Source: Naegleria gruberi (taxonomy: Eukaryota). From it: a DNA stretch of 64,000 bases. Shown in pieces: positions 24,401 to 62,061 of the stretch. The position numbers were made by a program, and so were the translations under genes. The notes beneath the pieces were generated by a model, which did no database searches, was not told where the DNA came from, and saw only the letters and a list, made by a program, of their open reading frames with translations. The first letter of the stretch is position 1. Every line of letters begins with the position of its first letter. The stretch lies in the NCBI GenBank assembly GCA_000004985.1, contig GG738901.1; one strand, written 5' to 3'.

Positions 24401-26393
24401 ATAGTCGAGCACTTTACTTCCTCTCAACCTAGAGATAATGAGTTCTTTTGCTTTATTCCAGCCAAAATGCAAAGATTATACTTTTGGATTAGCTCAAGAT
24501 ACTCTTTACTATTTTCTCAGGTGGATATTTCATCAAGAAAGAGTGAGAAGGTCCAACAATTTTCAAATTTGACCAAGCAAGATGAGTCTAAATTCAAGCA
24601 AGTGAAAAATCATTTAGAAAGCATACACTCATCCTTTAATAATGAATTTATTGATAATCTATTTAATGGAATTCAATTACTTGACTTTGATGAGTGGACA
24701 TATTTCGAGTTAAATATCCAGGATGAAATGTGCCACAAGGTATTATCTTCCTACTATAAGAATCAATTCCTTCAATATAATACCCTACTCTCATCCAAAA
24801 TGTCCCAAAACTCATTACCGTTCATGCTTTCAACATTGTTTTCACAGGCATTGTCTTTTGAAAGGGAATGCGAGCATCATTCTATAATGATACAATCCCT
24901 GATTGGCTTGATTCCAAAATTCAGTACGAATGACCAATTTTCCAACCAAGACCAATTTTGGCTATTTAAATCATGGCTACAAGCTATGCAATCAAGTCAA
25001 GAACATTCGAGAAAATGCCTCTATGATTTCGTAATATTTACCGAGCATCTAGATCCAATTATTTATTATTTGGGAACATATTCACTCTCTGTATTCTCCC
25101 AAGATTTTGATTCGAATATCAAGGTTTTGAAAAATACCCTTTCTCAATTTTCAAAATCTTGCCTTATACCAATATCACATCTGCATCCTTGGCCAGTTTT
25201 GTTTACCTCAAAGATTTTGGAAGGATTATTTTCACTAGTTTCCATTTCTCTAACCTGGATACCAAAGAGAGATACTTCAACTAGGGAACTGAAACAGTTG
25301 TTCAGAAATTTCATAACAGAAAACGAAATACTCAAACTTAATATTACAAGACATCTAGGATTACATGTATCAAATTTGGAGACTTGGATTTTCAATTACT
25401 TTTCAAACTCTCAAACAAACAAGGAAGAACTTTTATATAATTCAAAGGAAACACTCAAGGAAATTGTATCAGATTTGGAAAGGGATTATAATTTTGGTTT
25501 AAAGTTTTTGGTAAAGGAAACTCCTCTTGCCTTACTGAACACAATGTTGAACAAAATTGATTGCAATTTTGGAGGTTTATTGATTTCAGACATGTTGATT
25601 TCACTATTTATTAGTCCAACAGCTTCGAAATATTTGGATCCATTCTTTGAATTGAAAGAAAAAACAATTGAACAGCTGCCATCTCAGATATCAATCCATT
25701 CCCAAACAATTCTTGATTATCTAGATGAAACCAAATTCTCAAATACCACAGACACCAATAGATTGTCCAAAATAATAGAACTTGTATTTGGGAGAATAAG
25801 TTCCTTACTGAACACTCAGGAATTGGGTAGAGAAATGGTTCGACTTTTTCCAACAATTACTTAAATCCCTTTTCATCCACTACATTTCATTCATTAAGAA
25901 AATAGAACACATCTCTACCGCAACAATTCCAAATCCTCAAATTAACACCATCCACCAAGATATTCCCAAAATTTTAAAAACTATTATCCATCAAATATTA
26001 GCAAGCAATCCGATTAATTTTATTGCCATTGCCGAACAAGCCATACATGGCAACATTTCAGGTTTGCCACACTTTGAAGAAGACTCCTACCAAAAAGCGG
26101 AATATCAATCATTAATTACCATAGCCCTAGTTCAAATAATTTTGGCAAATGATGAGTTAATAAGATGCATCCTTAATCCAGATAGTGAGTCTCCATGGCT
26201 CGCTTTAACAAACTCTGCTGAATTCCAAAATATACTTTCTCAATTATTGGAAAATATTAATTCAATGGCTCTCCATAGTGAGATTCTTGTAAATTCACAA
26301 AGAATCAAGCTCAACCGAATCACTCCAACAGCACTCAATTTGGCTAGAAAGTTAATTCAAAAGAAATTAATCTCTGAAAGCGCCATTATCTAA
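21467..26393 (+). CDS. Very large hypothetical protein of about 1640 aa. ORF 21467..25864 continues in another frame as the stop-free stretch 25812..26393, with a +1 shift at a T5 run (25845-25849).
   Basis: The main ORF is 1465 aa from the ATG at 21467. The frame-0 stretch 25812..26393 is 194 codons without a stop, which is improbable by chance in AT-rich DNA. It overlaps the last 50 nt of the main ORF. The listed ORF 26064 starts at TTG. No GT..AG intron reconciles the two frames. Deleting one T in gactttttcc does. Confidence 0.6.
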
Positions 26394-28076
26394 TCATCTG
26401 ATACAATCAAGTACATAATGTAGGAAATAATAAATATCAGCGAAGGTGTACTTGATTTGATCATTTCATAAAGAACTTTTCTATTCTTAAGATTAGAATA
26501 AATCACCATAAGGAATTGTCTAGGAGCAATTTGACCCTTGAATTTTCCCAACTTGTCATTGATCTGAATTTGCCTCACATCGCTTACACTAAATCCAAAT
26601 GCTGTCAAAATCCAATTAATCAAGGAAATGTATTTTGTTGCCTGAACTGTTTTTAACTCTGAAACTAAATCTGTTTTTGGATCATACTTCATGACAGTAT
26701 ATTGTCCATTGAAAAAGTTTGAAGGTTGTAACCAAATTGAAGGAGCATTTTGAATACTCTTTGTATGTTTTCTCTTTTGAGCTTCCATGAAAAAATAATA
26801 ACGACTATAAACTTCTGACATCATGGCTCTCTTCCAAATGAAAATGAGTCCCAAACAGAATAGACCAATCCAGAAAACATTGCTTTGTTTCCATCTATTC
26901 AATCTACTGGCAGTCAACCAAGAATAGAAAAATACAATGAGTGTAAAGTCCCAACTCGTTACAATACCAAATGAATATAATTCTGATGAAATTGGATACA
27001 AGAGTGCAGTACCAAAATTAGTCATGAAATCCAACAATAAATGAGAACTCAAGCAACATGCAGATAATGTTGTACAATGTGTAAAGCTGTTAAATCCATG
27101 CAAGCCCAACACTTTCTGAACTCCAAAACCAATGAGTGGGGATAATAATAAATTAATAGGCAGAGAATGTGAAATAGTTCGCCTAAATGTAAGACTATTC
27201 TTGTCACGTCTTTCAAGCATGGCTTTCCAATTTCTTCTTGCGTTAGTAACTGTTGGTTGAGTATCCTCAGAATCAGAATCATATTGAGATAAATTACTAG
27301 AGCTACCAGCAGGAGTCTGTGCTGCATTAAGTGAAGAACTACTGAAACTTGAAGTCATTCCACCACCAGAAGATTCCTCCTGTTTCTTATTTGTTAATGA
27401 AATAAAAAGCTCCCACAATCTATGAATTCTGTCAATCATTCTCGAAAATCCCTTGAAGAATGACAAGAAAAACGAAATGATGAATAATGCAATATCTACA
27501 TCAGGTAAATTAGCCAAAATCATTCCAACTACGTAATACTTTTGTTCAAAAGTCAAATGGGAGAAGAATCGTTTAATTCTCCTCAGAAATTTAAACATAT
27601 TCGTGCTCAACACTTTAAAGAATTGTTTGAGTGATGTTTTTCTCAATAATTGTATCTTATCCTTTCCCATCATTAATTTACTTGCTCTATAGAGTTTCAA
27701 TTATAATATTTGGATCATTATTTTCCAATCAAGGCAATACATTCCATTGTCATCATTATCCGATAACAATATTTAAATAACAATTAATAGTAAATTTAAA
27801 TAATAATATTGATGATAATAATAATAATATTATAAATTAAATTGATGATCATCAAACATACCCATTAGCAGCCATTACTCCTCCATCCACAAGTGATTTT
27901 CCAATCAAGTAGAGAAATTGTTGTTGATCGGAGGTGTGTTTCAAATGTTCACTGTGTTTGACCATTGGACTCTCAGGAATCATTCGAAATCTCTTCCCTT
28001 TATCCGATACAAAATTCCTCTCAAACAAGTATCTCGAAATGACATAACCAAATATTGAGTGAATATCTGTTAACAT
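26390..28076 (-). CDS. Multi-pass membrane protein (about 503 aa) in two exons, complement(join(26390..27686,27862..28076)). The intron is 175 nt (GTATGT...CTATAG).
   Basis: The upstream 74-aa ORF 27852..28076 has a true ATG at 28076. Splicing its GG|GTATGT donor to the acceptor at 27687/27686 joins it in frame to the 436-aa ORF. That ORF starts at TTG and has no ATG until 27673. The intervening sequence is extremely AT-rich and intron-like. Several hydrophobic helices are present. The family is not recognised. Confidence 0.5.
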
Positions 28077-28300: not shown

Positions 28301-29406
28301 TTATTCAGTCTTAGTCTTCTTCTTCTTGTTCCAATGAGGCTTACCACCACGTCCACCAAAGCCCTTTCTCTTATTCTTATTGCTTTCAGCAAACTTAGCT
28401 TCACAGGTCTTAGCAATATACTTTTCCAAATCTTCTGGAGCCATTTCCGAAGCAACAGCTTTACCTGGAAGTTCAATCTTTCCTTCATCGAATTGTTGTT
28501 TAAGAGAATCGAAAACTTCCTTTGATTCCAATCGAAGAATAGCCTTGGTCTTATCACCATCGAGTGGGAAATCAATAAACTTCAAACCATTCTTCTTGTT
28601 GTATGGCAATTTCTTGGAGAAATCAGCAAATCCGAACTTTTCGTCACCTTCAATTCCTTGAATGTGCAAGAAAAAGTTTTGCTTCAATTCAGTTTGCATA
28701 TTAGAAACATCTTCTTGCTTCTTTTCTTGATTCTTCTTTTGCTTACTTTCTTCACGTTCCTTTCTCTTTCTATCAAAATGTTGTTGCTTGGTTTCCAAGA
28801 GGAGAACAGATTCTCCAAACTTGAAGTCAGACTTTCCAGCCAATTCATTAACAGTAGATTCAGAATCGAATTCAATGAAAGCAGATCCCTTGAATGTACC
28901 ATTCTTTTCTCTTCTGGCTCTAACACAGACAACTTTACCAAAAGGTTCAAAAAGAGCCTTGATTGAATCGAGATTAGCAACACTTTCATCGAGTGGGAAT
29001 CCCTTAGCATATAAAGTACGAGCATTGCTAGTATCAACTTCTGGAAGAGCAGTGATTCTTCTAACCAACTTTCCTTCAGCATCAATTTCCAACATGGAAC
29101 TCTTCTTCAAAGCAGAAACAATAAGATCCATATCAGTAGAAATTTGTTTCATTCTATTAAAGGAAGCAATAGTCTTAAGTTCAACATCTATTCATCATCA
29201 TCATTATCAAATTATCATCATCATCAACAATAATATCAATGTATGGGATATCGGTTAATCAATATTGACAATATAAAACACTTACATCCTTCAGGATTGT
29301 TAGCAACGAGACTTCTCAAAAATTTATCCTTTGGAAGATTACTATCACTAAAGTAGAATTCAACTTGTTCACGAATCTTGTTTGAAGTAATTTCAGCGTC
29401 AGACAT
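28301..29406 (-). CDS. La protein homolog (La motif plus RRM) in two exons, complement(join(28301..29187,29286..29406)). The intron is 98 nt (GTAAGT...GAATAG).
   Basis: Exon 1 encodes MSDAEITSNKIREQVEFYFSDSNLPKDKFLRSLVANNPEG, which is the canonical La motif start (QVEFYFSDxNLxxDxFL). Splicing continues with (G)YVELKTIASFNRMKQ..., then an RRM-like region, and a Lys/Glu-rich C-terminus ending in a basic tail. The intron contains an (ATC)n microsatellite. Confidence 0.85.
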
Positions 29407-29832
29407 TTTGGTTATTGTTGTATTTTTTTAAAGACGAAAAAACGTTCAAATTTATTTCTGCAATAACATTTGTTGAAGTTGCTCAGAAATGCATAACAGA
29501 TAATAATAAAATATTTGATGATGGTGATGATGAACATGGAGATCAAGATCTGCATGATATGGTTCGGAATGATTCGTTTTTGAAATATAACGTGTTTATA
29601 AATACATTATCATAATGATGTGAGTTAGGTAATTGTTAATTGTTTAATATTAATGTGAGCATTATTAAGGATATAATTTCAATTGTCATCCTCAATGACA
29701 TTTCATGATAGGACTTCTTGGTTCACTACACTTTTGTTGGAATAACTATCTAGAGCTTGATCTCATTTTCATATCTAATCTTGGTTCCCTATAATATAGG
29801 AACAGCTAAGCAAAGCTTATTGCCTAAACAGC

Positions 29833-31136
29833 TTAGTTTTGATGTTCAGGGTGATTATGTCTCGAGTAGAGTGGTTGATCATCTATTTCGTCAGATAAAT
29901 CTTGTATATGAAGACCAGCAAAGGTACTTGAGCTCAGTGTACTCAATTTGATAACTTGCATTTTGCTGAGGGAGATTTCTAATTCTTGTTCAATTTCCTT
30001 TGAGGATTCCTCAGTGATGGCATTCTGATTTTGTAACCAATTGATAAAGTATTCTTCACTGGAGCAAGTGAGGATTGAGAAAACTATTCCTCTATAGTAG
30101 GACCAAAAGTAGTAACTGCCAACAAATATTGGTGTCATGGAGATGACAATTCTGATTGGAATTATTCTGTGAAGTGATAAGAGCCATGTCAGTAAGGCAA
30201 TAATAATACTAGCTACAATAAGAATGAGTCCACTGGTTTCAGTTGCTGCAGAACTGAACTCTTCAAGTACTCTGGAGAAAGTGAATATTGTAAATAAATT
30301 ATTAGTGAACACTTACTTTCTACTAAGAATAATCATAATAACAATCAATACCAAGTAAAAAATTGTAAATGAAAAATTGACAGCAACAGAAGTGACACTA
30401 TATCTACACTTGTCATTGCTAATATAAATTTCCTCAATTGCACTCGCAATAATACAGTAAATTATTACAGGAATCAGCAAGAGCACAATGAAAACCATGT
30501 TAATATATTTGAGTTTTCTCTTTGTTTTAAATCCAATCAAGACAATGAGTTGTCTTGTGAGCAATGTGCAAATCCAACCAAACTATTTCAATTTTTTAGA
30601 ATAATCCATTGCGAAGAAAATACTTACAAATCCAATATTGAAAAACCAAATTGAAAATGTCACACACAATCCCTTTGTTGAATTTGCGAGTAATCCATTA
30701 TTGAACTGTAAAATTCGAAAGATTAAGAATGTATCATTTCTAATACTGAAAAATATGAAATACCTACACAATATCCAATAAACATGACTGCATTGAAGAA
30801 TAAAGTTTTTGCCATTAGAAAGGGATGTTTCGAACGGACAGCAATCTTCTTGTACTTGGTAAAAACCAAAGCCATAGCAACGAAATTACACAAAATCATG
30901 AAACAACCAACAGAAAAAGCAACAATATCTGCAGGTGTTTGTGATGGTACTGGTTTAAATCCGAAAGGGTTTAGAATAGATGAATTAGAGGAATCTCCTG
31001 AATATAATGGTTGATATTGTTCCGTATCAAAATCTCCAAATAAATTAAACAGAGTTGATAGGAGTGGTGTTTGTTGTTCTTCTCCTATCGAATGAAATGT
31101 TAAATGTGTCATGTCATCCACAGTATGTTGAGACAT
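29833..31136 (-). CDS. Seven-transmembrane receptor-like protein (383 aa) in four exons, complement(join(29833..30271,30317..30582,30628..30705,30768..31136)).
   Basis: Four consecutive minus-strand ORFs in different frames join exactly through three introns. The introns are 62 nt (GTAGGT..TTTTACAG), 45 nt (GTAAGT..AAATAG) and 45 nt (GTAAGT..CTCCAG), and the phases are consistent. The spliced protein has an ~60-aa N-terminal tail, seven hydrophobic helices, and an acidic C-terminal tail. The ATG at 31136 was checked. Confidence 0.7.
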
Positions 31137-31269
31137 TTTTTATTATAATTGTTTGATGGGCTGACAAGCTTGATTACAATACTTTCGAATATTGTGATAC
31201 ATACATTTATTATGTATAGTGGAGAACTAAATACTGATTAAATATTAAATACATGCAGAATATCTTTGA

Positions 31270-32250
31270 TTACAGAACAAATCTTGGTACGTTCTCATTT
31301 TCCTGTGCTAAATAATTTATATTATCAATGTTATTCATTGATAACATGTTTCCAATATTAAATTGAGTAAGGTCTGTATTCTGAGAGAGGAGAAATGTCA
31401 GAATAGTTTCAGAATCATTTGGTCCTGTATATTCTGTGAAATAATCAGAGAAGGGATACTTTTCCAATTTTTCCTTAAAGAGATCAAGCTTGGTAAAAAC
31501 TATTGAAACATCCGCTGGTATATATTCTGAATAATTTACAAATTCACTAAAATTTTGTAAAGCCAACCAAAGACAATTAGCTCCAGAAATTGAGTCTGTT
31601 AAATTGTAATCTGCAAGGGAAATTAAATAAATTACTCGTGTCATGGTATTGTCAAAATGAGAAATCCACTTTCGTTTCTCATTTCTTTGTGGACTAGGAT
31701 CAATTAGTTTACTTGTTTCAAATGAAAATTCATAAATTGATGACTTGGAATGAGGTATTTTAGTTTGTAAAAGATCATGAATTGTAAAATCTGCATTGAT
31801 TGCTTGTAATTTGGCAATGAAATTCTCAGAAAAAAAGTATCGAATATTTTCCATATATCTGAAATGATGTGAAATGAATTCCAATTCCTCACTCTTTAGC
31901 ATTGTTAAATATTTCATAAATTCGATCATGCTTGATGTGAAAACTCCACTTTTCCTAGCTTTTTTAATTTCCTCATTTAAATTACTGAATTTAAAATCGA
32001 CTATTTTGAATGTTTGCCAACAGATGTCCAAACATCGAATGACATACTTTCGAATATGCAATTCTCTTTCTTCCGCATTCATCATGCTATTAGTTTCTTT
32101 CGATAGATGATAAATTCCATGTCGAAAGGTTGACTTTCCACTTGAACATGCTCCTAGAATTAGTATTTGTTTTTTGCATGGTGTAATTCTGCGTCTCAAA
32201 GCAGTATCAATAGCTTGACTGTGAAGTTTCTGCTGCTTTCGTTTACTCAT
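31270..32250 (-). CDS. Divergent heterotrimeric G-protein alpha-subunit-like protein (326 aa).
   Basis: The G1 P-loop is QILILGACSSGKST. A helical-domain-like insert follows. A block aligns with the G-alpha switch I to G3 region (...LIDPSPQRNEKRKWISHFDNTMTRVIYLISLADYN). DVGGQR is replaced by DPSPQR. The G4 NKxD motif is replaced by TKLD. There is no N-terminal MG(C) lipidation motif. Confidence 0.7.
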   Translation of the reverse strand: MSKRKQQKLHSQAIDTALRRRITPCKKQILILGACSSGKSTFRHGIYHLSKETNSMMNAEERELHIRKYVIRCLDICWQTFKIVDFKFSNLNEEIKKARKSGVFTSSMIEFMKYLTMLKSEELEFISHHFRYMENIRYFFSENFIAKLQAINADFTIHDLLQTKIPHSKSSIYEFSFETSKLIDPSPQRNEKRKWISHFDNTMTRVIYLISLADYNLTDSISGANCLWLALQNFSEFVNYSEYIPADVSIVFTKLDLFKEKLEKYPFSDYFTEYTGPNDSETILTFLLSQNTDLTQFNIGNMLSMNNIDNINYLAQENENVPRFVL

Positions 32251-32623
32251 TTTTTTCTTTCGTGGTTCTGCAAAAAGTTCTTGTCTTGTTCACTATAAGT
32301 AAGAGAAAGTAAGTTTGACTACAGCTCTGAAAAGTAATCTATTCGCAAATGAGGCAGTTTTACCACATTCCTAAATGAAAATTTTCTTTCCAAAAAAACA
32401 TTTGTTGAATTTTGGCTCCTTTTACCCAGGAAAAATGAAAGTCCTTTAAAGTGCATTCCGACTTACTCACATATCTGTTCGTTCATTATTATCTGATCTA
32501 TTTACCACATGCAATGAACCTCTTAAGAATCCATCAAGTGATAAAAAAACAAATAAATTGATCTCAATCATTGTAGAGGATTAAAATAATATTGTTTTTA
32601 TTCAATTACTATTTTTAAAATCA

Positions 32624-33061
32624 ATGTTGAACAATAAATCTGAGCGAAGTGGTGATGAAAAAGAGGAGGATCTTGTGATTCAGAATCCCTCTAACTGTAA
32701 ATGTAATAATCACAACAATGGTAAGCAGCATCTTGAAGGGACAAATTTAATGCAACAACCACAACCACTGTTGGATGATGATGTGAATGATATTCTTCAA
32801 TTATTAACAATAGAAAGTTGCAGTGGAGGTTGTAGCTTTGATTGTCTTAAATTCGAAGAGAAGGAAGCAGTCGAAGAGGATACCTGTAATCCAATGTCGC
32901 AACAACATCTTCCTTCCGATATCAAATCGGAACCAATTCTCCTACTGCTTACTGATAAGAAGGCAACATCAACAATGGATCACAACGTAAGTTATCATCA
33001 AACATGTAAATTAACGTGCCATTTGGGCGATTTGACTAATTCAGAAGTCGTATGCATCTAA
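32624..33061 (+). CDS. Hypothetical acidic protein (145 aa) with weak support.
   Basis: ATG at 32624. The 145-aa ORF is acidic, sits between two convergent/divergent genes, and belongs to no recognised family. Confidence 0.3.
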   Translation: MLNNKSERSGDEKEEDLVIQNPSNCKCNNHNNGKQHLEGTNLMQQPQPLLDDDVNDILQLLTIESCSGGCSFDCLKFEEKEAVEEDTCNPMSQQHLPSDIKSEPILLLLTDKKATSTMDHNVSYHQTCKLTCHLGDLTNSEVVCI

Positions 33062-33239
33062 CAAACAAGGCGACAATTTTCATCATGAAAAAAGAACAGA
33101 CAATATCATCAACAAGAAGAACAAGGCTTCCTCATCATTAGGCAGTGCTTTTAAAGAAGATTTTGTAAATTTTGTTTCAGAATCCACAAGTTCCTCTTAC
33201 ATTCCGCAACAGCCATTCACAACATTATATTCGAAAAGA

Positions 33240-36200
33240 ATGAAGGACGAAGAGATGGTGGAGAATAATCAATCTACTGTTAATGAAGATGGAATCAAGA
33301 CATCATCTGAAGCTAAACCAACACAATTTAACCACTCCTCACATCATCAAAGGCCTCATCATATTAACAAGGGTCTCGGAGAAGAACAACAATACAAATT
33401 TCCTTCATCTATTACACCACTTTCACTGGCCAATATTCATGCCAATGCATCGACTAACTTACTGCTAACTTCATCAACATTATTTAATTCTTCAAGTGAA
33501 TCACATGGTGGTGGAACCATTTCGAGAAGCTCCTCCAATACTTCAATGGATAGCTCCTCCTATTCACTCTTGAATAATCACCATCATCTAACCACATCTT
33601 CCTCACCCTCTGATGGTTTTCACTCAACTCTAAAATCCCTAGAAAATGTTCTCCCTCCATTCTTTACTCCATGCGTGCCACCTCATGCATCATTCAATTA
33701 CTATTCAGAACATTATTGGGGAGAACATCCCTTATCACTAACCTCCTTCTCTCCAATTCTTCATTATGAAAAGAAGTCATCTCTAACGATTATTTGTCGA
33801 TACACACCACAACAAACTAGGAATTCTCCAAGAAGGGAGAGACCTTCCTCTCAAAAAGAATTAATAGAGAATGAGATTTATTGTCTGAAAGTTTCACTGG
33901 ACAAACCATCCATTCCAAAGCTGGAAAGGGATGCAGAAATTTCTCGATTCTTGACCAATGAATTTTCTCAAGTGTTGGATCCAGCACAACAGGTTATTGT
34001 CAGTACTAAGGCCTATTTGTCTGATTATTTTATTCTCGTGAGGGAGTTTATTGATTGTGTTTCGTTGAGATCATTTATTGATAGATCGAAAACATATGCT
34101 AGAGCAGAACCAATTACTGATGAGAATTTTGAAACCTTAACAGATGATACTGTAACACTTCTCAATGAAGAACAACGAGTGAAAGAAAACATTACAATAT
34201 TGGAAAGTAATTTAACACTTGCTATTTCTATTTGTATGAGTGTTGCTCAACTGCATCACTCAAGAGTTTGTCATGCTGACATTAGGCCAGAAAATATAAT
34301 TGTAGAAGGACCTAAATGCAATATAAGATTGATTGATTTTGGAAAGAGTACATTCCTCCCTTTGGAGCATCCATTTTTATATACCGATAAAATTATTGGT
34401 AGTCAAATGTATTGTGCTCCAGAGGCAACAGGAAAGATTCCAAAACCAATAGGTTTCCACACTGATATATATTCACTTGGATTTGTTCTCTTTGAGTTAT
34501 TTTCCAAAGAACATCCATTTACCAAGTTTAGGACATTAGATTTCGTATTTCAACATTTGACTCAACAGCCAGAGTCCTTGTTTCAAAATCTAGCGAGAAG
34601 GTCTTTTATATCAGCCAATGAAGGAAACCTATTCACAGCTGCTACTAAAGCAATTTCAAGACTAATTACCAAAGCAATTCAAAAATCTATTGAGAAACGT
34701 TATTTGAGTATTTTTGGATTGAAACGAGATTTGGTCTACATACAGAATGCTATTCAACTAGAAGATATGGAAGCTCTTGAAAATTTTCAAGCTGGTATGA
34801 ATGATGTTCAAACAACTTTATCCATACCTTATGGTGTATATGGTAGAGAGGAAATTTTCAAAAAATTGGAACTGAAACTTGAAAATATGATGGAATCTAG
34901 TGAGCCAACGATTGTCCTTCTGGGGGGCTATAGTGGCATAGGTAAATCATGTATTGTTAAGGAGTTTAGGACAAGAAGTAAAACAGCAATACAATTCTTT
35001 GAGGCAAAATACGATCAACATATGAATGTACCTTACTATGCCATTATTTCCATATGTAAACAAATTATTGGCGACGTTCTTGGAGAATCTGAATCAGTGA
35101 TTAAGGATTTCAGATTCCAACTTGGTACACTTATCAATTCAGATCAATTAGAAATGTTGAGTGATGCAATTCCTGACATGTCATATTTATTTACAACTAA
35201 TGCAACCAAAAAGCATACCTCCCCATCAATGGGAGATCAGAATGGAGAGCGTATGAAGCTCTTTTCACAAGGAAGTAAGTAATATTTTGAATTTAACATT
35301 ATAACAATATTATATTGCTCAGTTATTCATCTCTTTAGTGTTTATACTCATTTAAAGAAAAAGAGGTTATGCATTTTCTTGGATGACTTGCAATGGACTG
35401 ATTTTGATAGCATGAAGCTATTGAAGGAAATTCTTGGAACTGGTTCTTGTGATACTGTTCCTCTTTTAATTATTGGAGCATATAGAAATAACGAAGTGGG
35501 AAAGGACCATCCTCTATTTTACTTTTTAGAAAATCTCAAACTTAAAGTGAACATTGAAGAAATTGAAGTTGTTGAGTTGACAGAAGATCAATCTAACATG
35601 ATTGTCTCAGAGTCTTTAAGGAAAAATAGAGCTGAAACAGAAGAACTAACCAAAATACTCTTCTCTAGGACGAATGGAAACCCCTTCTTTTTAAAGCAGT
35701 TATTGGCTGGTTTATTTAAGGACGGATCTATTTATTTCGATACTCAAACAGATACTATTACATGGGATAAAAAGAAAATAGAAAATGCAGAATACTCTGA
35801 AAATGTTATTGACTATCTCCTTGGACATTTGGAAAAATTACCAAAACAAACACAAGATATTCTTGCATTTGCTTCTTGCTTTGGAAATAAGTTTTCCAAT
35901 GAAGACATGCTCCACCTACTCAATCAGCAACAAGAAGAAAAGATAGACTTGATGCAACTTAAAGAAAGATTGAACTATGCGGTGAAGGAGGGATGGATTT
36001 CAAATATCAATTCTGGTAATTTACGATTTAATCATGATAGACTCCAACAAGCTGCTTATGAATCACTGCCTTTGAATGAAAGGTTGAGAATTCACTATAC
36101 CTATGGTAAGCAGCTTCTCAAAAAAGCAGAAGAAGATGATTCTTTGGAGGAACGTTTATTTGATATAGTTGTACAGTTAAATCACAAACATAATGATCCT

Positions 36201-39200
36201 GCTTTCTTGGAGAATAGAGATGAGAGAAGATTACTCATTGACCTCAATAATAGAGCTGCAAAGAAGGCTTTGGAAACATCATCTACAGATAAAGCCATTG
36301 GCTTTGTTTATATTGCAAGGCAAATTCTAGAACACGAACCAGACTGTTGGAGTGAAGAAACTTATAAGTTGGCTTTTGAGAGTTTACTAATTGTTGGTAA
36401 TTGTAACTATTCTGTAAATATAGAATTGGCAACCTCTCTATTCATGGAAGCTATTCAAAAAGCTCAAAACAAGACAGATCTTTATGAGGCATGCAACCAT
36501 GGATTGATGGCCTATCTTTCACAAGGAAAATATGAAGATGTGTTTAAAATTTTGACTGATCATGTATTTACTACATATGAAGAGTTGAATTTCCTTACTC
36601 AGGAGCATACTGTTGAATCCTTGACAACATGGATACTTAACAAGATGAAATACATGAAAGAACATGTGCTCGTTAATTTTACTCAAAAATCTGACATTCT
36701 CAATTTGCCAGATATTGATGATTTGGAAAAGTGGCATCTTATTTGTTTGCTCACTCAATCCTGTCCTGCTGTTTTTCATATGAATAACTCACTCAGCAAA
36801 CACTACTTTATGATTATGATATTAATATCGTCTGATATAGTTTTAAATAATGGCATTACTCCTCTTTCCCCATTGTTAATTTCAGTCTTTGCATGGTCTT
36901 GGTGTAATTTTGAGTTTTATCCTCAGATGAACATGTTCTTAGAGGCAGGATTAGAGATGGAAAAGACTAGATTCAGGAATGAGCATGAATTGGCAAGTTG
37001 CACATTGATGAAGTTGATGAGTTATTACTTTTCGCCAACAATTAACCCTCTTGAGGTGTGGAATATATCCGAGGAAGCCTTCTTATTGTCTGTGAAATCA
37101 AAGAACAAACACTATGGCGGTTTCTCTATTCTGTGGTATCCATTCCATCACTTATTCTATAGCCACGGAGATGTAAAGACTTCTATTGGATTGAGCTTGA
37201 ATTCAATTGAGATTTTCAAGAGAAATGGAAATGTTATGTTGATGGATGCCAGTAAAATGATACTGGAATTGAAATATGTTCTTTCAGGAGATGTAGACCA
37301 TTACCTGCCAACGTATGTAAGCCAAGTGAAGGAATATCCATTCTTTAGACAAATGCACTACTCGTTCAAGGGAATTTCACTCTATTTCCAAAATGATATT
37401 GAAAAATCTTTCAAGTGTATGGAAAAATCGTATGATTTTAGAGAAGACTCTGTTGGTATGTGTTCAAGCTGGATTGATTTAATCTTCCTAGGTTTAATCT
37501 CAGCTATCTTTTTGAGAAGTGCTCAAGAAAAGATTGAAAAAGCCCAAGAAATACTGAAATATTCTATAGAAAGATTGGAAATGATTTCCCAAGCTAATTC
37601 TTCTGTTTTTCTTGCTCCTTTGGAGTTCATAAGAGCCGAGACATTGTACTCAGAATATTGTAGAACAGGTGTCGAAAATACTAGAAAAATCATTTCTCAC
37701 TACAGAAAGAGTTATATTATGGCTGAAAAGGAAAGAAACACCTTTTTAGCTAGGCTGATTAATTTGAGAACAGGAGAGTTTTACAACAGTCTAGGTATGG
37801 ATGATGGTATTAGTGGAAACTACTTCCTTAGAGCTATGGAATCTTTTGAACAGTTTGGTGCTTCCATCGTTGTTGATTATATTTTGGAGAATTATTCAGG
37901 TCACATCGATGGCTATTCATCATTTAGTAATAGAAATCCTGAACAAGTATTCTCTAACACTTCTCTATCTGATGAAACAACAGATCACTCTCTTGCTGGA
38001 GTAACAAAGAGCAGAATTTCTGAATCAACAGAATTGGATTTTAGAGAGATTTTCATTTCAATTCTGCCAATTCTTTCAGAACAAACGTTATCACCAAGAT
38101 GTTGTTTGATTTTGAAGAGAGATTCAACAGTTTATGTAGATGCCGAATTTAATGCAGACCTGAATTCTATTGAAGCACTTTCGTCTACCAAACAATTCGA
38201 AAATAGTGATTTGGACAAATTTTCAGATTTATTCCCTCTCAAGATGATTCACAGAACTCTAAGATCCAGAACAGAGCAACAACTCGTATGGAATGACAAT
38301 GAGAAAGAGTATTACTTTGTGAAGAATGTAGTGGCCTCTGCTTTATCTATTCCTATCATGAAGAAAAAGACAGTCATAGGTATGCTTTTTATTATTATTT
38401 TATTTATATTATTTAATGTATTAAGGTTGTATATACTTGGAAAATAAGGAAACGAAGGATGTATTCACAACTGAAAAAATTAACCTTGCCAAACTTATCA
38501 TCTCGATCAGTTTGGACAATGCTGGAATTTTCACATCTATTAACAAATCCTATGCTAGGTTTTTACCTGCTGAATTCTTAAAGTTGCTTGGAAAGAGTCA
38601 CGTAACTAAGGTAAGGTTGGGCGATGCAGTTTCTAGAGAAATGACAGTGCTCTTCAGTGATATTTATGGATTTACAGAGATTATGGAGGGACTTTCTGCA
38701 AAGGATGGCTTTGCTTTTATTAATCTACTATTGAAGAGTATTGCACCTCCAATTTCAAGAAACTCTGGATTTATTGACAAGTTTGTTGGTGATGGAATAT
38801 TGGCATTGTTTATTGAACCGCAAGGAGCTGTCACTGCAGCTTTAGAAATGATTTCAGAATTGGAAGTTTTCAATAGTAGAAATAATACCAATGTAAAGTT
38901 GGGAGTTGGTTTGCATCATGGTATTGTTCAACTTGGTACGATTGGATATGAGCAACGATTGGATGCTACTGTTATTTCAGATACTGTGAACACAGCTAGC
39001 AGATGTGAATCTCTCACAAGAACTTTTCATTCACATATTCTAGTTACTAAACCAGTTATGGATGCTGTTACAGTGCCACACAGTGTGATAAGTACCGAGT
39101 TGGGTAAATTCATGCTGAAAGGAAAACACATACCTCATCAAATTTACAATATCGCTTCTAAATCATGGAAAGGAAGTGGTAGTGCTAAAGAATTCGCTTT

Positions 39201-39423
39201 ACTAAGCAAAGTTATTGATCTCTTCTCCAGGAGTGAATTTACCGAATCATTTGCCCTCGCAGAAACAATTCTCAAGAATACAAAGAACAATACCATTATA
39301 GCTGCATGCAACATGTATAAGGAAGCATCAACATTATACGGATCAGTTGTTTTACCAAGTGAATGGCAAGGTGAAATTCGGTTGACCAAGGATGGAGAAG
39401 TCAGAGAGTACTTTTCAAAATAA
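33240..39423 (+). CDS. Large multidomain signalling protein (about 2029 aa) with a Ser/Thr protein kinase domain, a STAND/AAA-type P-loop NTPase, a long helical (TPR-like) region, and a class III adenylyl cyclase catalytic domain. Three exons, join(33240..35274,35323..38379,38426..39423).
   Basis: Three consecutive plus-strand ORFs must be joined. The kinase motifs are CLKV (VAIK Lys), HADIRPEN (non-RD catalytic loop), DFG and APE. The Walker A motif (GGYSGIGKSCIVKEF) sits at the end of ORF 1. The matching Walker B motif (LCIFLDDLQWTDFD) sits at the start of ORF 2. A 48-nt GTAAGT...CTCAG intron removes the intervening TAA. ORF 2 and ORF 3 are joined by a 46-nt GTATGC...TTAAG intron. The cyclase has metal-binding Asp in FSDIYGFT and KFVGDG. 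Its purine-specificity Lys/Asp pattern points to adenylyl cyclase, and it ends in GVGLHHGIVQLGTIGYEQRLDATVISDTVNTASR. The total length is divisible by 3. Confidence 0.75.
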
Positions 39424-39582: not shown

Positions 39583-42039
39583 ATGAAAAAACGACATTCA
39601 ACCTTTTCCACCACAATCAATCATCGAGATTTGATTAAATCATCTAATTTTAATTCATTATCTACTAGTAATATTCAATCATCATCATCACCAATATTGA
39701 GCACTACTTCTAGAAAAGGCTTCCGAGAACGACCACTCATCAAATTCATATTAAAACAACGTTCCAAACGATTGCAACAACAAGGCTCTAGTGAGTTTGC
39801 TGGTGCGGAAGTGGAAATTTTGAAGGCTTGTTGGAGAAAAATAGAGGAAGAGGAGATGAAGGACTATCGAGAAAATCTCTCGAATCGATTGGGGTTTTAT
39901 TTTGATGATGAGGAATTGTTGGCCATGTTCGGAAATCAATTGATGAAGGATGAAGAGGAACTACAGCAGAGGACGACAATGGATACTACCAACACTGAAC
40001 CAAGTTCGGCTGGTGGTGCTACTCTTGACAATTCTTCACTGAAGAGTGGTGACAGTGCTCGTTCATTGACAAGTTTCGGATCTGACTCGAAACTAAATTC
40101 GCCAATTAGTCCCAACCTCGACAAGAAGCATTTGCAGTCAACTTCATCGACCAAAAGCTCCACTTCATTTGCATCCTTCTCTGGTGCACCATCATCACTC
40201 ACACCAAGCCCAAACATTGAGGAGAACAAAAATCTTTCCTACCTCTACGATATTCATACTTTTCCTAGCAAGCTGAATCTGATACCAACCATGCATTATA
40301 ATGTGTTGGATGTTGTTGAGTTGTCCTCTGTACAGCAAATTGTAAATATAACAAGTCCTTCTTCGGAGATTGGGATACTTAAAGATTGTACAAATGATTC
40401 TTCTCCTACTGTAAATATTGAATCAACCACTTTTAGTCTCGAGATTTTAGATAGTTTTATTACTGTTGATTCTTTTGAAGATTTTTCAAATCCTTCATAT
40501 AATCCACTCAATATTAGACATTTATATTGTGATTATTGGTCCAACAAACTAGAATTCAAACAAAGGATCAGTAAATCTTCTCTTACTTCAAACAATAAGA
40601 AGGAAAATGAAAAATCAAAAAACTATATACCATTTGAAGAATTGGAAAAATGTAGAAATTGTACAGAACTCAAATTGAACAATAACAAGATTAGATCTCT
40701 AGATTCTAAACATTTTACCAATTTTGCACACTTGACAGAATTGAATCTATCTTCGAATAGAATGTCTAAAGCAAGACTGCCTGAGGATATTTTCTCACAT
40801 ATGCCACATTTGCAGAGGCTTTCTCTCGATTATATGGGTCTTAAGACTCTACCAAAATCAATTAACAAATTGGTAGAGCTTACCTACCTTTCACTTTCCT
40901 TTAACAAATTGAACACTTTCAACTTGCTACATGGAAAAGACAGACACTTGAATGATTTTTGGCCAAAATTGACCAATTTGGAGTACTTGAATTTGTCTGG
41001 AAATAGATTGAATAGATTTCCTTCAGAAATTTGTAATTGCAAATCATTGGAATTTTTGAGTTTGTCCAACAATAGAATAATTAACGAGATACCAAAGGAA
41101 ATTGAAAATCTCAAAAAATTAGCAATACTCTTCTTGAATGGAAACAAAGTTACTGCTCTTGATATTAATAGAAATTTGGAATTTTTAGAGAATTTGACCC
41201 ATTTGGAATTGGGTCACAATCCTAATATCCATGTGGTTCCACCTCCTGTTTACAATTTAACCAAATTAGAATCACTCTGTTTGAGCCATCTAACCATTAG
41301 TCATTTATCGGATGATATTGGAAAATTAAGAAATTTGACTCACTTGGATTTGTATGGCTCCAAACTAACTGGTCTTCCAAAGGGTATTTCACAGCTTATC
41401 AACCTTAGGAATTTGGATATGCGATATTGCAGAGGTATCAAGGAGTTCCCTATTGAATTGTTTGGTCAAAAAGTTTCAAGTAGCACTATCACTACTACCT
41501 CTCCAATGAAATCCCTTACTAGATTGAGTCTTAGCTATACAATGATAGAGAGCATTCCTGAGGATATTTCCTCTCTCCAGAGTTTACAAGCACTTTTGGT
41601 GAATGACTGTCCCTTGCTCGAAGAAATTAAGGGTATTGACAAGCTTGTCAATCTTGTAGAGTTTGACATCAGTCGTTGCATCTCCCTTGTTGAGCCTCCT
41701 TCTGATGTGTGTGAGAGAGGTCTTGCCCACATTAGAGGATATCTGAAAGAAAAGGACGATGGACCTTCTATTTTTTTAAAGTTTATTGGATCAGTATTTG
41801 GTGGAAATACCTCAAATAATTCCTCCACCAACAAGAAGAAACTACCTTCACCAATAGGCACAGAAAACAACCTCAAAGTGGAACACAATGAATTACTTGT
41901 TGCCTCACCAGTACCAAGCATTAATTCTGGAGATGATGATGGTGATAGTGATTCTGATGATGAGATTGGCGCATCTAAAAAGAAGAAACCAAGTCCAAGT
42001 GGCAGTACTGTCAAGTCATTATTTTCCTTTTGGAAATAA
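39583..42039 (+). CDS. Leucine-rich-repeat protein (818 aa) with a Ser-rich N-terminal region and about 16 SDS22/Shoc2-type LRRs.
   Basis: ATG at 39583. The LRR pattern repeats, for example LTELNLSSNRMSK, LQRLSLDYMGLKTLP, LTYLSLSFNKLNT and LEYLNLSGNRLNRFP. The C-terminus is acidic and Ser-rich. Confidence 0.8.
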   Translation: MKKRHSTFSTTINHRDLIKSSNFNSLSTSNIQSSSSPILSTTSRKGFRERPLIKFILKQRSKRLQQQGSSEFAGAEVEILKACWRKIEEEEMKDYRENLSNRLGFYFDDEELLAMFGNQLMKDEEELQQRTTMDTTNTEPSSAGGATLDNSSLKSGDSARSLTSFGSDSKLNSPISPNLDKKHLQSTSSTKSSTSFASFSGAPSSLTPSPNIEENKNLSYLYDIHTFPSKLNLIPTMHYNVLDVVELSSVQQIVNITSPSSEIGILKDCTNDSSPTVNIESTTFSLEILDSFITVDSFEDFSNPSYNPLNIRHLYCDYWSNKLEFKQRISKSSLTSNNKKENEKSKNYIPFEELEKCRNCTELKLNNNKIRSLDSKHFTNFAHLTELNLSSNRMSKARLPEDIFSHMPHLQRLSLDYMGLKTLPKSINKLVELTYLSLSFNKLNTFNLLHGKDRHLNDFWPKLTNLEYLNLSGNRLNRFPSEICNCKSLEFLSLSNNRIINEIPKEIENLKKLAILFLNGNKVTALDINRNLEFLENLTHLELGHNPNIHVVPPPVYNLTKLESLCLSHLTISHLSDDIGKLRNLTHLDLYGSKLTGLPKGISQLINLRNLDMRYCRGIKEFPIELFGQKVSSSTITTTSPMKSLTRLSLSYTMIESIPEDISSLQSLQALLVNDCPLLEEIKGIDKLVNLVEFDISRCISLVEPPSDVCERGLAHIRGYLKEKDDGPSIFLKFIGSVFGGNTSNNSSTNKKKLPSPIGTENNLKVEHNELLVASPVPSINSGDDDGDSDSDDEIGASKKKKPSPSGSTVKSLFSFWK

Positions 42040-43740: not shown

Positions 43741-46563
43741 TTAAAGGTCATCATCTGATTCAACCTCTTCGACTCCCTCCACTATTGGTTCTTCTTCTTC
43801 TACAATCATAGGGCCACTTTGATTGTCAACTCTGGCTTTGGTGAATTTGTAGAGTTTGTCCAAGAGTGAACGACCTTGATCCCACCAAGAAATATCAACC
43901 TCATGATAGGTGCCACGAAGTGGATTGATAACTCCAATATTCTTAATTTCCATTCCATCCAATCTAGCCATGGCTGCATAGCAGAGTAATTGAATAATCC
44001 ACTCAACTTCAATATCTTGGGATACCGAACATTTAATATCAATAATGGTCTCGCCATCAATGATGATATCTGCCTCTCCAGTAACATGTTTTCCATAACT
44101 GAGACTTCTATGGGTATTAACTGAGCTTTCAGTTTTTTCTACAATAAATGGAACAAAGTGCTCTTGTAAATTATTGAACAGTTCTGTATAGTTTGGAGCA
44201 ATGTCCTTAATAAAGTCAAACTTTTTCTTTAGATTGGTATTGCCAAGATAGAGCATTCTGGTTCTTCCCTCTTTAACAACTGCATCAAGTTTGGAAATTT
44301 CGAATACACTTTCTAGAATATCAATTGACTCATAATTTGGATTTGTAAAAATTCTGTAAGCTGTTTTTAAACTGTCTACATAACCGGGTGGGAAGGCATA
44401 TTCTGTCATTACTGGAATAACCTCGAATGAAAATTGTCCCTTCTCCAATATTTTCTCGAAAGATTCAATAATCTCAGTCATGACTATCTTTTCATAGCCA
44501 TCAGTAATAGATTTTAACAAAGCTTTTGGAGGTTTTCCATTTCTCATCAACTGCTTCAATTTCTTTGCATATCTATTAAAGACCTGGATACTGCCTGTAT
44601 TTAATACGATTGCCTCGTTAATGAAGAGTTCAGTGCATGTATGACTAAAACCTCCTCCATTAGGTATTTTCTCAGAAATCATTCTACAAAATAAAGTATC
44701 AATAAAGTTTCCAAAGTCTGTAAACATTTGATTTTCGTAAACCACGTCACAGTATGCAAAGTCTGTATCCACAATTTTGGTTTTCGTAAATTCGATTTGT
44801 GGCAAACATCCTTCTTCCTTGAGTATTGTCATGAGTTCTCCATCAATATTACGAACCATATTTGTTACGGTGTATGGATTAATAGATGAGTCGGATGCTG
44901 ATCTTGGCTGTTCTGAAATACGCAAGTCTGTGGGACTATGTAATCTGAATACGCTACGATCAATCTCTGTTATATAACTCAAACAAGTTGCTGTCTTGGG
45001 GAGAACAATGTGTAACTCATCCTTTGCTCTGGTAACAGCCACATATAATACACGTCTTAGTTCCGCATCATTATCACCTTTCCATTTATCATTTGATGAA
45101 TCCACCAAGAAAACAATATCCCACTCCAAACCTTTAGACTTGTGTATGGTTGATAGGCAAACTTTTCCAGTTGTTGTGTGTCTTTCCATTTCCTTTAAAG
45201 ATTTTGATTTTTCCATAATAGTAATATGTGGAATGAAGAATTTAGATAATTGTTCCTCTACCTTATAGAGACCATAATTTGTTGGAGAAAGGATTGCTAT
45301 TCTTTCTCTTGGCACTCCACGTTTCAAATATTCTGATATTTTCTTAGCAACATACAAACCCTGGTTATCATTTACAATGATTGGTTTAAGATTAGATTCT
45401 CTTGTGGTTGTCATTTCTTTTGGAATATTATCTGGATTATTTCTCAAAATTGCATTTGCCACTTGCAAAATTTCTGGCGTACTTCTATAATTTCTAGTCA
45501 GTGTTAACAGCTTAGAGTTTGGATATTTTGAGTGAAAATTCAAAATATGTTCCACACTGGATCCTCTCCATGAGTAAATGTTTTGCGAATCATCTCCTAC
45601 GGCAATTATCTTGCATCCTCTTTTGTGAAACTCTTCAAAAATCTCTGCTTGAAAATTATCAATATCTTGATACTCATCAATTATGAGATACTTTTTCTTT
45701 TTACAAATTTCATCCGCAATTTCTGGATAATTCTTCATTAAGTTCCTCAATCTATATCCATATTCAATCACACAAGCTTGAGAATCAAAATATTGCCAAT
45801 ATTTCTTCAATGTCTTGTAAGCAAATGCATCAATGGTTCCAATAGTAAATTTACTCTTAACTCCAATACTGGCAAGCTTTTCCTTCATATCATTTGCTGC
45901 CAATCTTGAAAATGTTGTCAACATGATCTGATGAGCTGGAATTTTCAAATACTTTATCATGTAAACAATTTTACAAATAATGGTTGTTGTCTTTCCACTT
46001 CCAGCGCAAGCCAACACTAACAAGTCATCATTCACATCTCCAAAAACAACTTGCTTTTGTTCTTCACTCAAATCAATCTGTACATCATCAATTGTAAATG
46101 TTTTCATAATTTCCTCTTCGGATGGAAAAACAATTTCCTTCTTCTTCCTTACTCTTTTTACAGGCTTTGAAATTTCCTCATCACCTCCAAAATTAATTTC
46201 CGGCATTAAACTAATTGCCTCATTACTCATAGCATTAATGATTTCTTCCTTTTCTTGAGGTTGGTGAGTAGAAAATAATTCCTTCACCTCATCATCTTGT
46301 TGCTTCAAAGTCTGTTTCCTTCTCGTAGCATTATTAATCAAAGATTGAGAAAAACATCTCCTCATCATTACATGATTCAATAAAGTAGAGTTATTGGTTT
46401 TCAACAAGGCTGATGAAGATCCTGTCGGGAATGATTTATTTCCACCATTAATTTTAATATGATTAATTATATTATTGTTATTACTATTTAAATGATGTAA
46501 AGTTGAAGTGGATGATAATGTATTCAAGCGATAGAGAAGTGAATTGTGCTTGATGTTGCGCAT
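43741..46563 (-). CDS. UvrD/PcrA/Rep-family SF1 DNA helicase fused to a C-terminal RecB-family PD-(D/E)xK nuclease-like domain (940 aa). The N-terminal extension resembles an organellar presequence.
   Basis: The helicase motifs are I (LVLACAGSGKTTT), Ia (TFSRLAANDMKEKL), II (LIIDEYQDID), III (GDDSQNIYSWRG), IV (NYRSTPEIL), V (LSTIHKSKGLEWDIVFL) and VI (VLYVAVTRAKDEL). The C-terminal ~250 aa carry a D...D-I-K nuclease-like triad (GEADIIIDGETIIDIKCS) followed by QLLCYAAMA, which is the RecB QxxxY motif. The N-terminal 90 aa are rich in R/S/T/N and have no acidic residues. Confidence 0.85.
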   Translation of the reverse strand: MRNIKHNSLLYRLNTLSSTSTLHHLNSNNNNIINHIKINGGNKSFPTGSSSALLKTNNSTLLNHVMMRRCFSQSLINNATRRKQTLKQQDDEVKELFSTHQPQEKEEIINAMSNEAISLMPEINFGGDEEISKPVKRVRKKKEIVFPSEEEIMKTFTIDDVQIDLSEEQKQVVFGDVNDDLLVLACAGSGKTTTIICKIVYMIKYLKIPAHQIMLTTFSRLAANDMKEKLASIGVKSKFTIGTIDAFAYKTLKKYWQYFDSQACVIEYGYRLRNLMKNYPEIADEICKKKKYLIIDEYQDIDNFQAEIFEEFHKRGCKIIAVGDDSQNIYSWRGSSVEHILNFHSKYPNSKLLTLTRNYRSTPEILQVANAILRNNPDNIPKEMTTTRESNLKPIIVNDNQGLYVAKKISEYLKRGVPRERIAILSPTNYGLYKVEEQLSKFFIPHITIMEKSKSLKEMERHTTTGKVCLSTIHKSKGLEWDIVFLVDSSNDKWKGDNDAELRRVLYVAVTRAKDELHIVLPKTATCLSYITEIDRSVFRLHSPTDLRISEQPRSASDSSINPYTVTNMVRNIDGELMTILKEEGCLPQIEFTKTKIVDTDFAYCDVVYENQMFTDFGNFIDTLFCRMISEKIPNGGGFSHTCTELFINEAIVLNTGSIQVFNRYAKKLKQLMRNGKPPKALLKSITDGYEKIVMTEIIESFEKILEKGQFSFEVIPVMTEYAFPPGYVDSLKTAYRIFTNPNYESIDILESVFEISKLDAVVKEGRTRMLYLGNTNLKKKFDFIKDIAPNYTELFNNLQEHFVPFIVEKTESSVNTHRSLSYGKHVTGEADIIIDGETIIDIKCSVSQDIEVEWIIQLLCYAAMARLDGMEIKNIGVINPLRGTYHEVDISWWDQGRSLLDKLYKFTKARVDNQSGPMIVEEEEPIVEGVEEVESDDDL

Positions 46564-61916: not shown

Positions 61917-62061
61917 TTTTTTCTTGTTAAATTCATTAGAGTTTAATGAAACCTTCTTGGTTTTGGAGATTTTTTGGTGTTTCTTTTTGGTTGACTTGTT
62001 AAAAGTGGTAACACTCAATATTTCTATAAATAATTTGAGTGTGTTTGTAATTATCTCGAGA

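Follow-up and report, generated by a model that had tools for sequence, protein, structure and literature searches.

A 64,000-nucleotide stretch of nuclear DNA from Naegleria gruberi (contig GG738901.1 of assembly GCA_000004985.1; hereafter, the window; GC content of ~33%) was analyzed with a focus on NAEGRDRAFT_72962, which encodes a divergent alpha subunit of heterotrimeric G proteins (hereafter, G-alpha). The gene is flanked on one side by a seven-transmembrane (7TM)-receptor-like gene and on the other by a gene encoding a kinase, a STAND ATPase, and a cyclase domain (Table 1). The translated open reading frame (ORF) was identical (100%, full length) to an N. gruberi "predicted protein" (XP_002672027.1 / EFC39283.1 / UniProt D2VVC0). 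A search across the window for other G-alpha copies found none, so NAEGRDRAFT_72962 is the sole G-alpha gene there. Literature searches by its accession numbers gave no match, and exact-sequence look-ups of its protein and that of a second N. gruberi gene, NAEGRDRAFT_63704, gave no record in the assembly index; these look-ups yielded no sign of expression from transcriptomes or Logan.

Table 1 Features of NAEGRDRAFT_72962 and other genes in the window.
Feature	Coordinates	Strand	Basis or remarks
Divergent G-alpha coding sequence, NAEGRDRAFT_72962	31270..32250	-	Single exon, 326 codons plus TAA, ATG start; from the ORF list
N-terminal helix, residues 1-27, polybasic	32170..32250	-	Sequence; predicted helix 2-20
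P-loop GACSSGKST, residues 33-41	32128..32154	-	Alignments; motif scan puts G....GK[ST] at 32154
All-helical insert domain, ~residues 59-150	31801..32076	-	AlphaFold2 helices 59-149, pLDDT mostly 84-97
Degenerate switch I QTKIPHSKSSI, residues 162-172	31735..31767	-	Alignments, motif comparison
G3 and switch II DPSPQRNEKRKWISHFD, residues 184-200	31651..31701	-	Alignments; near-canonical switch II helix
G4 motif TKLD, residues 253-256	31483..31494	-	Alignments; motif scan
beta6, G5-equivalent, and shortened polar alpha5/C-tail FNIGNMLSMNNIDNINYLAQENENVPRFVL, residues 297-326	31273..31362	-	TCAT absent
7TM-receptor-like multi-exon gene	29833-31136	-	133 bp downstream of the NAEGRDRAFT_72962 stop, same strand
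Kinase-STAND-cyclase spliced gene	33240-39423, possibly from 32624	+	Upstream of NAEGRDRAFT_72962, divergent
Copy of a multi-copy family	8324-9808	+	31-36% identity (range for both copies) to a 388-aa N. lovaniensis protein
Copy of a multi-copy family	61038-62084	-	As above
YdjM-family ORF	26390-27700	-	436 aa; Pfam PF04307 (inner-membrane protein family), E 2e-14
LRR-rich protein gene	39583-42039	+	818 aa
Helicase ORF	43741-46563	-	940 aa; UvrD/REP-type superfamily 1 helicase domains, E 4e-40
RING/B-box protein gene	47320-48030	-	

Motifs and predicted fold of the NAEGRDRAFT_72962 protein

Profile and structure comparisons placed the protein in the G-alpha family. The Pfam G-alpha profile (PF00503; curated cut-off of 48.8 bits) matched residues 10-296 over profile positions 3-302 of 333 with 151.6 bits (E 3.9e-44), and hundreds of solved G-alpha chains from the PDB matched with E values of ~1e-15, the identity to canonical G-alphas being ~22-24%. 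The Pfam and PDB alignments ran gap-free and in one frame through all motif positions. Canonical positions are numbered after human G-alpha-i1, using a reference sequence that was checked and is 100% identical to PDB chains, and conservation was compared with 104 other G-alphas retrieved by exhaustive searching. Conservation in those proteins reaches 75% or more in 57 columns, and the NAEGRDRAFT_72962 protein keeps 31 of these. NAEGRDRAFT_72962 thus encodes a genuine G-alpha family member in which catalytic and switch residues have been replaced.

The P-loop reads GACSSGKST, compared with GAGESGKST in the reference. Its Walker A core GxxxxGKST is kept (G33, S37, G38, K39, S40, and T41), including the Mg-binding Ser (S40), and G42 and E43 are replaced by C35 and S36, respectively. 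The first-pass annotation, made from the letters of the window alone, described the P-loop and the G-alpha layout as retained; this holds for the fold and the Walker A core, whereas the loop itself is only partly canonical. Switch I (LLQTKIPHSKSSI, VLRTRVKTTGI in the reference) has KIPHSKSSI where the G2 motif RxxTxGI is expected: the Arg finger R178 is replaced by K164, the Mg/gamma-phosphate Thr181 by H167, and G183 by S171, with an additional 2-residue insertion. G3 reads DPSPQR rather than DVGGQR and no longer has the DxxGQ pattern, with V201, G202, and G203 replaced by P185, S186, and P187, and with D184, Q188, and R189 kept. The DxxG glycine, here Pro187, is present in 93% of the other G-alphas. 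Both the switch I and the G3 replacements had been proposed in the first-pass annotation, and the alignments to Pfam, the PDB, and the 104 G-alphas bear them out.

No part of the protein is better preserved than the switch II helix. The segment QRNEKRKWISHFD (residues 188-200) shares 9 of its 13 residues with the canonical consensus QRSERRKWIHCFD, and its mean identity to the 104 other G-alphas (0.60) is the highest of any segment. E191, K194, W195, F199, and N225 are further kept residues, and I172, E174, and I183 of beta2/beta3 are conserved. The ionic pair linking switches II and III is gone, with R208 replaced by K192 and E245 by L229, and R242 is replaced by C226.

G4 reads TKLD instead of NKKD (N269 is replaced by T253; K254 and D256 are kept). 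The change from NKxD had been listed as a replaced nucleotide-contact motif, and it is indeed present, but although the Asn is gone, the motif is probably not lost: human Rac1 naturally carries TKLD as a working G4, and TKxD is found as well in some G-alphas that retain DVGGQR (P0022, P0066, and P0141), so that TKLD would not be a defect. Going beyond the first-pass annotation, we found that G5 (TCAT) and alpha5 are also altered. L303-S304-M305-N306 are aligned to T-C-A-T, so that T324 is replaced by L303 and A326 by M305, and the alpha5/C-tail is polar and shorter in the alignment than in canonical G-alphas. Residues 297-326 show ~0-11% ungapped identity even to the closest relatives described below. 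At the other end, the polybasic N-terminus without Gly2/Cys3 noted in the first pass was confirmed in the sequence: MSKRKQQKLHSQAIDTALRRRITPCKK (MSKRKQQK...) has 9 basic residues among the first 27 and does not begin with the MGC... of myristoylated and palmitoylated G-alphas. Four classical G-alpha features, i.e., G2, G3, G5, and the N-terminal lipidation site, are therefore lacking in this protein.

An AlphaFold2 model built with a 109-sequence alignment (predicted local distance difference test, pLDDT, of 86.5; predicted template modeling score, pTM, of 0.83) contains the N-terminal helix, beta1, P-loop, alpha1, helical insert, beta2/beta3, switch II helix, beta4-beta6, and alpha5, with none of the canonical set missing. 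The all-helical insert domain, a hallmark of G-alphas, bears conserved residues that are specific to the clade described below (F88, L91, F111, L123, N135, I136, and F139). At the C-terminus, beta6 (residues 299-302) and alpha5 (residues 308-320) have pLDDT values of 67-80, and the last 6 residues fall below 50. When a shallower model was compared with the PDB using Foldseek, the top matches were Gi/Gt alpha structures (probability 1.00, template modeling score 0.70-0.75). The protein is thus predicted to have a structurally complete G-alpha fold, including the helical insert domain.

Related proteins and intactness of the gene

A HMMER search of 1.84 billion representative proteins returned only four with E ≤ 1e-30, namely the NAEGRDRAFT_72962 product and three relatives with 34-38% identity; a further relative is a 255-aa fragment. 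These five main members comprise two N. gruberi proteins, one from N. lovaniensis, and two from contigs of one environmental assembly, and an additional environmental fragment has the same motif pattern (Table 2), its G5 region reading VNLTD. Word-indexed homolog searches with NAEGRDRAFT_72962, the clade profile, and the N. lovaniensis protein retrieved two, three, and one proteins, respectively, and no close ortholog. A metagenome scan with the clade profile detected 80 loci, none of them above 34% identity and all ordinary-looking G-alphas, and added no new close members. The 255-aa fragment (P0006; L003:792-1804) is the 3' part of its gene, and the 5' P-loop part (MKRTL...LGMHGSGKTTF...) is found in an adjacent 77-aa ORF; the two frames are offset by 1 nt at ~position 1005, which could reflect either an assembly error or a genuine pseudogene.

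Table 2 Motifs of NAEGRDRAFT_72962 and its closest relatives.
Member	Source	Identifier	G3	G4	G5
NAEGRDRAFT_72962	N. gruberi	XP_002672027.1	DPSPQR	TKLD	L-S-M-N
P0003	N. gruberi, second gene	XP_002681248.1, NAEGRDRAFT_63704	DPSDMR	TKTD	VNLT
P0004	N. lovaniensis	XP_044544303.1, C9374_010133	DPNEQE	TKSD	VNLC
P0005	Environmental contig	ERZ27315067	DTSGQR	THID	VNIT
P0006	Second contig of the same assembly	ERZ27315067	DPSGQK	TYVD	VDLT
P0155	Further environmental fragment		DISGQM	TKLD	VNLT

The five main members were monophyletic in 100 of 100 neighbor-joining bootstraps. The mean distance from the clade to other G-alphas was 2.5, forming a long stem, compared with 1.5 within the other G-alphas and 1.5 within the clade, and mutual BLAST scores were 103-172 bits inside the clade versus 48-89 bits to four canonical G-alphas. 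Judged from these sequences, NAEGRDRAFT_72962 is not a one-off and belongs to a small conserved clade with a DxS.., TxxD, and VNLT-type signature. The search for orthologs with the same substitutions, which the first-pass annotation had suggested as a check, thus led to a group with shared motifs rather than to a unique protein.

Within the clade, the Arg-finger position is occupied by K, K, K, Q, and K and the switch I Thr position by H, R, S, S, and N in the five main members, and the position of A326 (Met305 in NAEGRDRAFT_72962) is L or I elsewhere. The G4 Thr is invariant, and D256 and K254 are invariant or kept. All five have a basic N-terminus without Gly2, the relatives starting with M[AK]R.. 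or MKR... All clade members agree at 27 columns, many of which are clade-specific (F88, L91, F111, L123, N135, I136, Y208, T253, and F267). No other clade member has a G5 and alpha5 as diverged as those of NAEGRDRAFT_72962 itself. At the DxxG glycine, the three Naegleria proteins have three different residues (P, D, and E) while the environmental members keep the glycine, and for this reason the clade ancestor probably had DxSGQ, with the glycine lost later in the Naegleria copies.

Inspection of the reading frames revealed no better gene model. In a six-frame scan of positions 29000-34500, no match to D[VT..]GGQ, RxxTxG[IV], or TCA[T..] was detected, and the sole G4-type match ([NT]KxD) was the TKLD of the ORF itself. 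None of the alternative frames at the 3' end encodes a canonical, TCAT-like, VNLTD-like, or clade-like C-terminus, the protein stops at the same alignment position as its closest relatives, and only 133 bp separate its stop codon from the ATG of the next gene. A frameshift or missed exon as the cause of the odd C-terminus was rejected, as no frame supplies the canonical segment.

The ORF also has the properties of a constrained gene. The chance of an open frame of 326 codons at this base composition is 1.6e-11, and the frame-specific codon signal (0.178) is comparable to that of neighboring genes (0.19-0.29), though at the low end. With a nonsense-to-missense ratio of 0.076, ~12 nonsense substitutions would be expected on the lineage if divergence from the nearest paralog had been neutral, and the probability of observing none is ~6e-6. 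Given the open frame, the codon signal, the missing nonsense substitutions, and the deviant motifs shared across species, we reject long-term decay as a pseudogene. The first-pass annotation had named both a better gene model and close homologs in decay as findings that would overturn it; no model with canonical motifs emerged, and the closest homologs share the odd motifs instead of showing random decay.

Genes neighboring NAEGRDRAFT_72962

The downstream 7TM-receptor-like gene has at least one intron with a GTAAGT donor. Its protein has a hydrophilic N-terminus of ~70 aa, ~seven hydrophobic segments, and a C-tail of ~90 aa, and no Pfam match was found at E ≤ 0.01. The upstream gene (introns at ~35275-35355 and ~38380-38425) encodes a protein kinase domain, an AAA_16/STAND ATPase, ~1000 aa without a Pfam match, and an adenylate/guanylate cyclase domain (E 1e-16). 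Its start lies 373-989 bp from the ATG of NAEGRDRAFT_72962, and the two divergent genes possibly share a promoter region. This receptor-like / G-alpha-like / cyclase arrangement is suggestive, and we treat it as a lead only. It was not conserved at the three relatives' loci inspected, where no transmembrane protein was found beside the clade members. A conserved linkage of 7TM and G-alpha genes was rejected on these grounds and because the 7TM gene has no Pfam family.

We also compared the window with the N. lovaniensis locus that encodes P0004 (L001). None of the five genes there has a counterpart beside NAEGRDRAFT_72962, and because of this lack of synteny the orthology of the two G-alpha genes is unproven. 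The only other window matches to genes of that locus are distant, at 8.3-9.8 kb and 61 kb, and belong to a multi-copy family represented by a 388-aa N. lovaniensis protein encoded near P0004, which has no Pfam annotation on record. Among the remaining genes, which include those for a leucine-rich repeat (LRR) protein and a helicase (Table 1), the YdjM ORF belongs to a mainly prokaryotic family and may have been acquired horizontally in Naegleria.

Comparison with known G-alphas and possible mode of action

Canonical G-alphas, such as human G-alpha-i1 and N. fowleri G-alpha-1 to 13, belong to the same hidden Markov model family as the NAEGRDRAFT_72962 protein and have the same two-domain fold of a Ras-like domain plus helical insert. 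They share with it the P-loop core, the DxxG Asp, the catalytic Gln, the switch II helix with its Trp, and the G4 Lys and Asp, and differ in having the Arg finger, the switch I Thr, the DxxG Gly, R208/E245, TCAT, a full-length alpha5, and Gly2/Cys3. Functional P-loop variation has been described in N. fowleri G-alphas, and in Gi-alpha-1 the G42V mutant is GTPase-deficient and G42R is unable to reach the active conformation (PMC9283941). The N. gruberi genome has 44 G-alphas (PMC8584482), with lineage-specific diversification (PMC3971589). Deviant catalytic motifs have been noted in certain G-alphas from Dictyostelium, Naegleria, and plants, and certain G-alphas are without N-terminal membrane-tethering residues, suggesting reduced or lost nucleotide-dependent activity (PMC8584482, citing Anantharaman et al. 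2011). NAEGRDRAFT_72962 fits the description of these deviant Naegleria and Dictyostelium proteins exactly. Its kind is thus already known; the present analysis adds a defined clade, its signature (DxS.., TxxD, and VNLT), its distribution in N. lovaniensis and environmental contigs, and evidence of an intact gene under constraint.

The best functional analogy may be with the plant extra-large G proteins (XLG1-3), as nucleotide-binding motifs are degenerate in both; the likeness would be one of a possible mode of action and not of membership. XLGs derive from G-alphas, their nucleotide-binding motifs are weakly conserved, and their affinity for GTP is very low; neither their binding of G-beta-gamma nor their action depends on nucleotide (PMC8584482). 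Their N-terminus is extended by a long segment that includes a Cys-rich region and nuclear localization and export signals, whereas the Naegleria protein has none of these, being 326 aa long with its G-alpha domain starting at residue 10, and unlike XLGs it keeps an intact Walker A core. The neighbor-joining tree included no XLG sequence. As XLGs are reported to be unique to plants (PMC8584482), any resemblance would be convergent.

Laboratory mutants provide a second comparison. In the PDB alignment, the engineered "Dominant negative Go alpha subunit" (7ts0) reads DVGAQR at G3, and the Gi-alpha-1 G203A mutant, crystallized as a GDP-bound heterotrimer (1gg2), was among the Foldseek matches. 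The same DxxG glycine is substituted in these proteins, but they are single-site mutants of canonical G-alphas, whereas the change in NAEGRDRAFT_72962 is natural, is to Pro, and is accompanied by the loss of switch I and G5. Mutants of the G203A or dominant-negative type bind G-beta-gamma and fail in GTP-driven activation. These analogs would make a non-switching partner plausible.

A degenerate G3 was also observed in G-alphas of unrelated lineages (P0008, P0107, P0110, P0029, P0150, P0099, P0040, P0104, and P0086). Examples include Gq-like paralogs of blowflies (Cochliomyia, DVRIQR; Lucilia, DVGYQS), Dictyostelium dimigraforme (P0110; DIGIQN, with the P-loop GQKKSGVTT), Dermamoeba (DLENIT), Lithocolla (DISRIR and TKTD), Pseudovirgaria (DINTRQL), and, among Agaricales, Crepidotus (DPSGQR and TKMD), Mycena (DVGPQR and TEID), and Marasmius (EVGQRT).

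Our preferred reading, to which we give slightly better than an even chance, is that NAEGRDRAFT_72962 encodes a non-switching (pseudo-GTPase-like) G-alpha that is kept by selection and probably still docks G-beta-gamma in a nucleotide-insensitive manner. In the universal GTPase switch, the gamma-phosphate is held by the Thr of switch I and by the backbone NH of the glycine in DxxG, a group that proline does not have. With both gamma-phosphate sensors gone (Thr to His and Gly to Pro), the GTP/GDP state would be uncoupled from the conformation of the switches, and the R208/E245 contact that stabilizes active switches II and III would be absent as well. Given H167, Pro187, and the loss of R208/E245, nucleotide occupancy would not be converted to conformational change in the canonical manner. 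As the Arg finger is a Lys here and the counterpart of Ras G12 is a Cys, hydrolysis of any bound GTP would be very slow. The guanine ring normally packs against a small Ala, and its replacement by Met305, or by Leu or Ile in the relatives, suggests a weakened nucleotide affinity. As the switch II helix and beta2/beta3 are best conserved, G-beta-gamma or another switch II ligand would probably be bound, independently of nucleotide state. The protein could act as a competitor, buffer, or alternative platform among the 44 G-alphas of Naegleria, and membrane contact could be electrostatic, via the polybasic N-terminus, together with the lipid anchor of a partner. The short polar alpha5 tail and the missing lipid anchor argue against classical receptor coupling.

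Several observations weigh against this reading of a non-switching G-alpha. The P-loop core, D184, Q188, K254, and D256 are retained, and real GTP binding, perhaps with slow cycling, is possible. The environmental members P0005, P0006, and P0155 retain the DxSGQ glycine, and nucleotide independence may therefore not extend to the entire clade. That the conserved switch II and beta2/beta3 residues would contact G-beta, as in the 1GP2 and 1GOT heterotrimers, is a presumption. The last 30 residues of NAEGRDRAFT_72962 have drifted even relative to the clade and further than in its relatives, no N. fowleri clade member was retrieved by the word-indexed homolog searches, and synteny with the N. lovaniensis locus is lacking.

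Some of these observations would suit a still-functional but unusual GTPase, with a long-lived or constitutive GTP-bound state, very slow hydrolysis (as in Arg-finger or G12-type mutants), and "on" signaling via switch II. Such an enzyme would use the retained Walker A core, S40, D184, catalytic Q188, K254, and D256, with a TKLD that works as G4 in Rac1 and close relatives that retain DxSGQ, and there is a precedent in N. fowleri G-alpha-1, whose P-loop has TAQ and which is active but slow and not a substrate of regulators of G-protein signaling (PMC9283941). We nevertheless consider it unlikely for NAEGRDRAFT_72962. The "on" conformation would have no canonical route with Pro187 and without the switch I Thr, as expected from general knowledge of GTPases; E245 and R208, which stabilize the active switches II and III, are lost; and a bulky Met305 (L/I in the clade) lies beside the guanine site. 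The first-pass annotation had offered a GTPase-impaired or specificity-switched G-alpha, a pseudo-GTPase, or a scaffold, and the impaired, pseudo-GTPase, or scaffold options fit the sequence evidence best. The other option, an NTPase using a nucleotide other than GTP via altered G4 and G5, could account for the replacement of N269 by Thr and for the bulky residues in place of the TCAT loop at the base-binding site, but the Asp that reads guanine (D256) is retained along with K254, Rac1 binds guanine normally through TKxD, and no change typical of XTP or ATP switching seems to be present, which leaves this option unsupported and very improbable.

The drifted C-terminus would suit a recently inactivated, decaying but still-open unprocessed paralog arising from birth-and-death turnover of the 44-member family. 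Recent loss of function is possible because the absence of a retrieved N. fowleri member and of N. lovaniensis synteny points to fast family turnover, in line with a very large and lineage-specific G-alpha family (PMC8584482, PMC3971589); the codon signal is on the low side, and a 1-nt frameshift divides P0006, one of the environmental relatives. This explanation has to contend with an ORF that is intact in a genome of 33% GC, the ~12 nonsense substitutions expected under neutrality, structural core positions that are kept in a confident model, and odd motifs that are common to several species and hence inherited and conserved rather than random, and we regard it as distinctly improbable. An artefact of the gene model, in which canonical motifs are masked by an overlooked intron, frameshift, or exon, finds some footing in the short introns that N. 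gruberi genes can carry and that both neighbors do. It is hardly credible given the continuous one-frame alignments, the null results of the six-frame motif scan and of the alternative 3' frames, the matching C-terminal end, and the 133-bp gap to the next ATG.

A broader and more doubtful extension of the non-switching reading is that heteroloboseans independently evolved a nucleotide-insensitive class of G-alphas, convergent with plant XLGs, that docks G-beta-gamma through switch II and forms a non-switching arm of signaling, maybe wired locally to the products of the flanking 7TM and kinase-STAND-cyclase genes. As the phenomenon in general has been described before, the gain made here is incremental; NAEGRDRAFT_72962, NAEGRDRAFT_63704, and N. 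lovaniensis C9374_010133 can now be flagged as a defined and testable clade. If the non-switching reading is true, Naegleria would be the second independent lineage, after land plants, to keep a G-alpha as a nucleotide-independent heterotrimer partner, which would bear on the frequency with which "dead" GTPases take on regulatory roles.

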